DNA of 977 nt from Escherichia coli (lineage in GTDB: Bacteria; Pseudomonadota; Gammaproteobacteria; Enterobacterales; Enterobacteriaceae): assembly GCF_003334385.1 (NCBI RefSeq), contig NZ_QOWN01000139.1; one strand, given 5' to 3'. The notes under the pieces are model-generated. The model was not told the origin of the DNA and ran no database searches. It saw nothing but the letters and a program-made list of their open reading frames with translations. Each line of letters starts with the position of its first letter. Positions within the stretch are counted from its first letter, which is position 1. Positions 343-977 of this stretch are shown piece after piece. The translations under genes were made by a program, and so were the position numbers.

Positions 343-687
343 TCACACCGTGACCTGAAACTCCAGGGTTGCACGGTAACAGCGGTTTTCCGGAATATAG
401 TCCTGCATTTCACTGACGGATCCCGGGGCCAGCAGCATTATGGCTTCACGGGCGTCCTGACGTATCTGACGCGCCTGCGTCACAGTCCCGGCATAAACGT
501 CTATCTGCACCGACACTGAGGACTCCGCCTGCCCGCCCATCACGTCCGCAGACACCGATGAAATCAGGCTGAAAACCACCCACGGAAGCGCCACCGACGG
601 CCTGCCATCCAGCAGGGGGACCACATACGGGTACACCTGCCCGCCGGCAAGATGCGCCAGATGAGGATACAAATCCGCCTCCGTCAT
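343..687 (-). CDS. DUF3168 / gp17-like phage tail completion (tail terminator) protein, complete, 114 aa
   Basis: Complete minus-strand ORF with ATG at 687..685 and TGA at 345..343. The ATG overlaps the stop of the upstream gene (ATGA at 684..687). The translation shows the pattern I associate with DUF3168 proteins: G-x-VYP...P......LPWVVF..IS......G.......VQIDVYA.T...A. The family call is from memory of the motif and would need HMM confirmation. The gene lies between a gp10-like gene and the probable major tail gene, as expected. Confidence 0.75.
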   Translation of the reverse strand: MTEADLYPHLAHLAGGQVYPYVVPLLDGRPSVALPWVVFSLISSVSADVMGGQAESSVSVQIDVYAGTVTQARQIRQDAREAIMLLAPGSVSEMQDYIPENRCYRATLEFQVTV

Positions 688-977
688 CGTCTCAGTACCT
701 CATCAATGGCCCGGTTCATCCGCGCAATCGCCACCTGAGCTGCCTGTTCACTGCGCACATCAAACGCCGGGCGCACAAACGGGTGCGGTGGCATATTCAC
801 GGTCCCCATTTCCACAAACCGCCAGTAGAAAGCATTGCGCGGGTTATCCGCCTTCATGGTGTTATCGCTGTTGCCGGTGTCCGGATTAACACCACGGATA
901 TGCACACCGGATTCCATCCCGCCATCGCGGGAACGCCGGGAAAGGACCACCACATTGCGGCGCAGTTTTCCCCTGCG
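684..977 (-). CDS. HK97 gp10-family phage protein (putative neck/tail component), 3' portion; 5' end lies beyond the right window edge
   Basis: Minus-strand ORF ending at a TGA stop at 684..686. The ORF track starts it at 953, but that codon is GTG and the frame stays open upstream to 977 (in-frame upstream residues ...RRGKLRRN, my manual translation), so the real start is probably outside the window. The translation contains the segment NAFYWRFVEMGTVNMPPHPFVRPAF, which matches the conserved aromatic-x-FxEFGT...MPxxPFxRPA core I recall for the HK97 gp10-like family (recalled, not searched). Its position immediately upstream of a DUF3168 gene is the usual siphovirus order. Confidence 0.75.
   Translation of the reverse strand, partial: RRGKLRRNVVVLSRRSRDGGMESGVHIRGVNPDTGNSDNTMKADNPRNAFYWRFVEMGTVNMPPHPFVRPAFDVRSEQAAQVAIARMNRAIDEVLRR

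Follow-up and report, generated by a model that had tools for sequence, protein, structure and literature searches.

An 89 aa ORF at the edge of an Escherichia coli prophage segment reads as the C-terminal portion of a 148-codon HK97-gp10-family tail completion protein gene

Results

Genes and features of the locus

The window, by which we mean the whole 977 nt stretch of DNA that was analysed, carries one complete and two partial phage genes together with two terminator-like hairpins, all on the minus strand (Table 1). Its best match was a prophage in the chromosome of E. coli 2013C-3033 (locus L001), where it corresponds to positions 4001–4977 with 99.9 % identity. The sole mismatch (C versus A) is found at window base 321 (L001 4657) in intergenic DNA between the two hairpins, and all coding bases of the window are identical to those of L001. 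Searches with the reverse complement identified 92 phage records at 95–99.3 % identity, which were mainly Stx1a-, Stx2a- and Stx2c-converting phages, plus BP-4795-like phages and Lys8385Vzw. Furthermore, the window matched 1245 of 5426 complete E. coli genomes, often in several copies per genome. From these phage and genome matches, we take the window to belong to the tail and neck module of a common lambdoid or Stx-type prophage.

Table 1. Features of the window and of the corresponding region of the E. coli 2013C-3033 prophage (L001)
Feature	Sequence	Coordinates	Strand	Details and source
HK97-gp10-family tail completion protein (TCP/Ne1) gene, 3′ two-thirds, assigned by homology	Window	684–977	−	Codons 52–148 plus TGA stop (686–684); first 51 codons beyond the right edge
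Apparent-start GTG	Window	951–953	−	Internal codon Val60 of the 148 aa protein; position mapping to L001
ATGA overlap, TCP stop TGA (686–684) with next-gene ATG (687–685)	Window	684–687	−	Read directly; L001 4291–4294
Tail terminator/Tc1 gene, complete	Window	343–687	−	114 aa; ORF list; RefSeq; PHROG 347 'tail terminator', E 2e-17
Weaker terminator-like hairpin with T-run	Window	340–356	−	Terminator scan; overlaps 3′ end of tail terminator gene (stop ends at 343)
GC-rich hairpin CCCGC-CGCGT-GCGGG, then TTTTTTATTA	Window	299–313	−	Terminator scan; terminator-like; in the gap before the major tail gene
Major tail subunit gene, 5′ part (first 92 codons), ATG at 276	Window	1–276	−	Translation; RefSeq L001 4702–5418; preceded by AGGAGG RBS
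Head–tail connector	L001	3165–3491		RefSeq annotation
Head closure protein	L001	3501–3851		RefSeq annotation
HK97-gp10 family protein	L001	3848–4294		148 aa; RefSeq annotation
'Tail completion protein gp17' (tail terminator)	L001	4291–4635		RefSeq annotation
Major tail subunit	L001	4702–5418		RefSeq annotation
Chaperone pair and tape measure gene, after the major tail subunit	L001			RefSeq annotation

There is a clash of names at this locus, as the product termed 'tail completion protein gp17' by RefSeq is that of the 114 aa gene (PHROG 'tail terminator'), whilst recent literature keeps 'tail completion protein' for the gp10/gp16.1/gpZ family, represented here by bases 684–977 (PMC11099176, PMC11661146). 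Separately, the portal gene that lies upstream of the neck module in L001 (584–3168) is flagged as 'frameshifted' (pseudogene) in E. coli 2013C-3033, and the portal region of phage Lys8385Vzw (L002 70–2168) consists of two ORFs. This could be a real frameshift, either programmed or resulting from decay, or an annotation problem shared by the prophage lineage.

The tail terminator and major tail genes are separated by a gap of 66 nt. Records of HK97 and HK75 label the counterpart of the GC-rich hairpin in this gap a 'putative terminator'. The position and stem of the hairpin are kept in both of these phages and in phages of Klebsiella and Salmonella, the latter with different loop bases. One would not expect a terminator directly ahead of the tail protein required in the greatest amount; presumably the hairpin is read through under late antitermination, or else serves as an mRNA-stabilising or -processing element. 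An Rfam search of the window returned a single, sub-threshold match to the Hfq-binding sRNA isrK (293–396, minus strand; 17.7 bits versus a gathering threshold of 50, E 0.32), with no other match. The matched region spans both hairpins and extends into the 3′ end of the tail terminator gene; the match was rejected as most likely due to chance or driven by the hairpins.

An open reading frame runs off the window edge

Translation of the minus strand from base 977 to base 684 yielded 97 sense codons followed by a stop (RRGKLRRNVVVLSRRSRDGG...IDEVLRR*); read from base 977, the product is RRGKLRRNVVVLSRR...AIDEVLRR*, ending at the TGA of bases 686–684. Between position 953 and the window edge this translation contained no in-frame stops, confirming the claim of a preliminary description of this DNA that the frame stays open to the edge. 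The ORF-listing program had nevertheless reported an ORF of 89 aa at 684..953 with a GTG start, because it begins ORFs at start-type codons only and omits those that run off the source sequence; reading in from the window edge, the first start-type codon to be met is the GTG at 953. In the 20 nt upstream of this GTG the sole Shine–Dalgarno (SD)-like motif is a GGGGA some 15 nt away, and there is no well-spaced SD. The open frame from 977 to 684 is not a product of chance, since this segment matches both the NCBIfam profile TIGR01725 (51 bits, E 1.8e-13) and phrog_23409 (E 1.8e-56).

An ATG 153 nt outside the window is the most likely start of the gene

Within L001 the gp10 frame extends past the window edge by a further 51 codons (153 nt), reaching an ATG at 3848, in agreement with the earlier proposal that the start of the gene lies outside the window. 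This ATG is the first start-type codon after an in-frame stop located 29 codons further upstream. The preliminary description had suggested looking upstream for a start codon with either a ribosome-binding site or an overlap with the head-closure gene, and the ATG at 3848 has both: the SD sequence GGGAGGGG has its GGAGG core 6 nt before this codon, and the codon forms an ATGA overlap with the TGA stop of the head-closure gene. Because of this overlap, the start of the TCP gene is probably translationally coupled to the head-closure gene. The same arrangement is present at the other end of the gene, where the ATGA formed by the TCP stop and the start of the tail terminator gene is a translational-coupling arrangement.

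In RefSeq and in six independent phage records the proteins are 140–149 aa in length (149 aa for HK97 gp10 itself), consistent with the statement in the preliminary description that members of this family exceed 89 aa. They start at or overlapping the end of the head-closure gene, and all annotations inspected use the upstream ATG. An in-frame stop within a few codons to the right of position 977 had been named as the observation that would make 953 or a nearby codon the genuine start; such a stop is absent from the near-identical L001 copy and from six diverged relatives that were aligned. As such, judging from near-identical copies, the ATG 153 nt beyond the window edge is most likely where translation of the TCP gene starts. 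A point to set against this is that, among copies, the 200 nt upstream of the edge vary more than the window does, with most at 95 % identity to L001.

In considering this assignment, we weighed whether the gene in the source genome might be truncated or disrupted just past base 977 (as a prophage remnant, by an IS insertion or at a contig end), leaving no intact 148 aa gene. The window is just 977 bases long, and mosaicism or decay is frequent in such prophages, the frameshifted portal gene of L001 being an example. Against this, a 400 nt probe centred on the window edge was at least 80 % covered at a single place in 1244 of 1244 matching E. coli genomes, so the junction across the edge is normally intact. 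In addition, the part of the gene within the window is free of stops and frameshifts and has no coding-base difference from L001. We thus regard a disruption as very improbable.

The codons upstream of GTG 953 are conserved as protein

A tblastn search of phage genomes found relatives that align from residue 1, 6 or 10 of the 148 aa protein through to residues 146–148, at identities ranging from 98 % down to 27 %. In an alignment of seven proteins (the window protein and those of HK75, Salmonella SP-016, a Klebsiella phage, Evi, Proteus Pm34 and Burkholderia Bcep176), 13 N-terminal residues were invariant down to 42 % identity: L11, L21, A24, R31, T34, A36, A38, A49, P50, G54, K55, L56 and N59. 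An example of a peptide within residues 1–59 of the long form is LLDFSGLEEISR. When codons 1–59 were compared with those of HK75, 25 codons had synonymous-only and 18 had nonsynonymous changes, with 39 of the 64 base differences at third positions; codons 60–148 have the same substitution pattern. The alignment of relatives, the invariant residues and the coding-type substitutions together indicate that the part of the frame upstream of GTG 953 is truly coding.

These observations bear directly on the proposal that GTG 953, or the neighbouring GTG at 950, is the real start of a protein of 88–89 aa. That GTG 953 is the first start-type codon to be seen in the window speaks for this, as does the finding that the 89 aa segment alone, at 51 bits, passes the TIGR01725 cutoff, and members of the Ne1 superfamily are reported to span 56 to 231 residues (PMC4362835), so that a short member is conceivable in principle. 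Set against these points, the frame stays open upstream of the GTG, no properly spaced SD precedes it, the 59 upstream codons are conserved as protein with synonymous-biased substitutions, the short form covers TIGR01725 only from position 74 of 120, and every annotation inspected takes the upstream ATG. A genuine 88–89 aa protein is therefore even less probable than a disrupted gene. With the upstream ATG as the start, GTG 953 reads simply as Val60 and not as an initiation codon, which agrees with the doubts already cast on this GTG in the preliminary description. The 89 aa ORF is a textbook window-edge artefact of ORF listing and no biological oddity.

Nested-gene arrangements occur elsewhere in lambdoid phages. 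It is, all the same, highly doubtful that GTG 953 or 950 acts as a secondary in-frame start which, besides the 148 aa protein, would give a short C-terminal isoform (the FxExGT...PFxRP motif plus the C-terminal helix), a notion that finds no support here.

Membership of the HK97 gp10 family

Alignment to gp10-family HMMs, the other check proposed at the outset, favours the long form. The 148 aa protein matches TIGR01725 (phge_HK97_gp10, an equivalog profile with a curated cutoff of 30.8 bits) with 80 bits and E 2e-22, residues 8–143 covering profile positions 1–120 of 120, whereas the 89 aa form scores 51.1 bits and covers positions 74–120 only. The Pfam family PF04883 is matched by residues 13–109 (model 2–78 of 78, 41.6 bits, i-Evalue 2.5e-10), and phrog_5, 'tail completion or Neck1 protein', with E 4.7e-35. 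The conserved FxEFGT...PFxRPA block, placed by the preliminary description in the C-terminal half of such proteins, is found as FVEMGT...PFVRPA at residues 105–122 of 148, in the C-terminal third. By position, too, the gene is where an Ne1/TCP gene is to be sought, since in L001 it lies between the Hc1 and Tc1 genes and upstream of the major tail gene.

A profile of the seven sequences gave one weak but plausible match in the PDB: through the C-terminal F.E.GT...PF..P motif alone, it hit 9mu2_P ('HK97 gp10 family phage protein', E 0.0056). With the single sequence, the sole PDB matches were designed beta-propeller 'Bagel' proteins, which were rejected as spurious because their score is the sum of eight insignificant repeats, each with an i-Evalue of >100. 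A low-confidence AlphaFold2 model built from the seven-sequence alignment (mean pLDDT 52) has predicted helices at residues 9–23, 27–48 and 125–147, and strands at 60–66 and 72–78. The 80alpha gp51 fold has been described as a long N-terminal helix, a loop containing a beta-hairpin and a C-terminal helix (PMC11661146), and the helix/beta-hairpin/helix layout of the model would agree loosely with that description.

The PHROG matches also pointed to irregularities in existing records. In phrog_23409 (264 positions), the first 98 positions match the head-closure protein and positions 117–264 the gp10-family protein, whilst phrog_17053 (59 positions) matches only residues 92–147 of the latter. Given these match ranges, some phage records apparently annotate the head-closure (L001 3501–3851) and gp10 genes as one fused ORF, or contain only a C-terminal fragment. 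This is the same type of mis-annotation as that against which the preliminary description had warned for the window.

Discussion

Taking these results together, we consider it close to certain that bases 684–977 represent codons 52–148 of a 148-codon TCP gene that belongs to a lambdoid or Stx-type prophage neck module. The relevance of this finding is for annotation only: the gene is known, and RefSeq as well as records of HK97-like phages already annotate it correctly, including its family, start and context. As was foreseen, annotation of the gene as an 89 aa protein would truncate it: a conserved virion protein would lose its N-terminal 40 %, and with it TIGR01725 positions 1–73. The N-terminal helical region, which would form part of the TCP fold, would be largely absent from the 89 aa form, and with it both N-terminal helices of the low-confidence model.

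By homology, the window protein would serve a lambdoid or Stx-type prophage as its tail completion protein (TCP/Ne1). The superfamily has been named Ne1 (Lopes et al., 2014, PMC4362835) and tail completion protein, TCP (Auzat et al., 2024, PMC11099176), and the typical gene order given in the literature, Ad1, Hc1, Ne1, Tc1, is exactly that of the neck genes in this prophage. The role of these proteins at the virion tail, in head–tail joining and productive DNA delivery, is known from experiments on SPP1 gp16.1, lambda gpZ and P2 gpS (PMC11099176, PMC4362835). Specifically, SPP1 gp16.1 contributes to the tail-to-head interface, and the routing of ejected DNA into the cell depends on it (PMC11099176), whilst lambda particles without gpZ look normal and are mostly non-infectious (PMC11099176, PMC4362835). 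In the neck of 80alpha/SaPI1, a single copy of the TCP gp51 is found inside the lumen, touching the tape-measure N-termini and the DNA end (PMC11661146). By analogy with these proteins, the 148 aa protein may join the head-proximal end of the finished tail. Its gene sits in a neck module ordered as adaptor, head closure, TCP, tail terminator and major tail protein.

Among known systems, SPP1 gp16.1, lambda gpZ and 80alpha gp51 occupy the same neck-module position and are placed by the literature in the same superfamily (PMC4362835, PMC11099176, PMC11661146), but their sequence similarity to the window protein is remote and confined to the C-terminal motif. Much closer is HK97 gp10 (NP_037704), the founder of PF04883 and TIGR01725, the 149 aa length of which is listed in Table 1 of PMC11099176. 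A BLASTP comparison gave 109/149 identities (73 %) and 87 % positives (E 2e-82), with residues 1–148 aligned to 1–149 through one gap of 1 residue and no N-terminal overhang. HK97 also shares the gene order (Ad1, Hc1, gp10, tail terminator, terminator hairpin, major tail subunit) and the same 4 nt overlap of the gp10 start with the head-closure gene. The differences are that the window protein is one residue shorter and has scattered substitutions, and that the surrounding head genes of L001 (portal, capsid) are of the Stx/BP-4795-type lineage. Such mosaicism has been pointed out for phi4795, the Ne1 of which is 76 % identical to that of HK97 (PMC4362835); the same phi4795 protein is 98 % identical to the window protein. 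Finally, the Ne1/TCP proteins of BP-4795 (phi4795) and of Stx-converting phages have 97–98 % protein identity to the window protein over residues 1–146/148. They differ from it by a few substitutions and bear inconsistent product names ('minor tail protein', 'hypothetical protein', 'structural component'), and are effectively the same gene.
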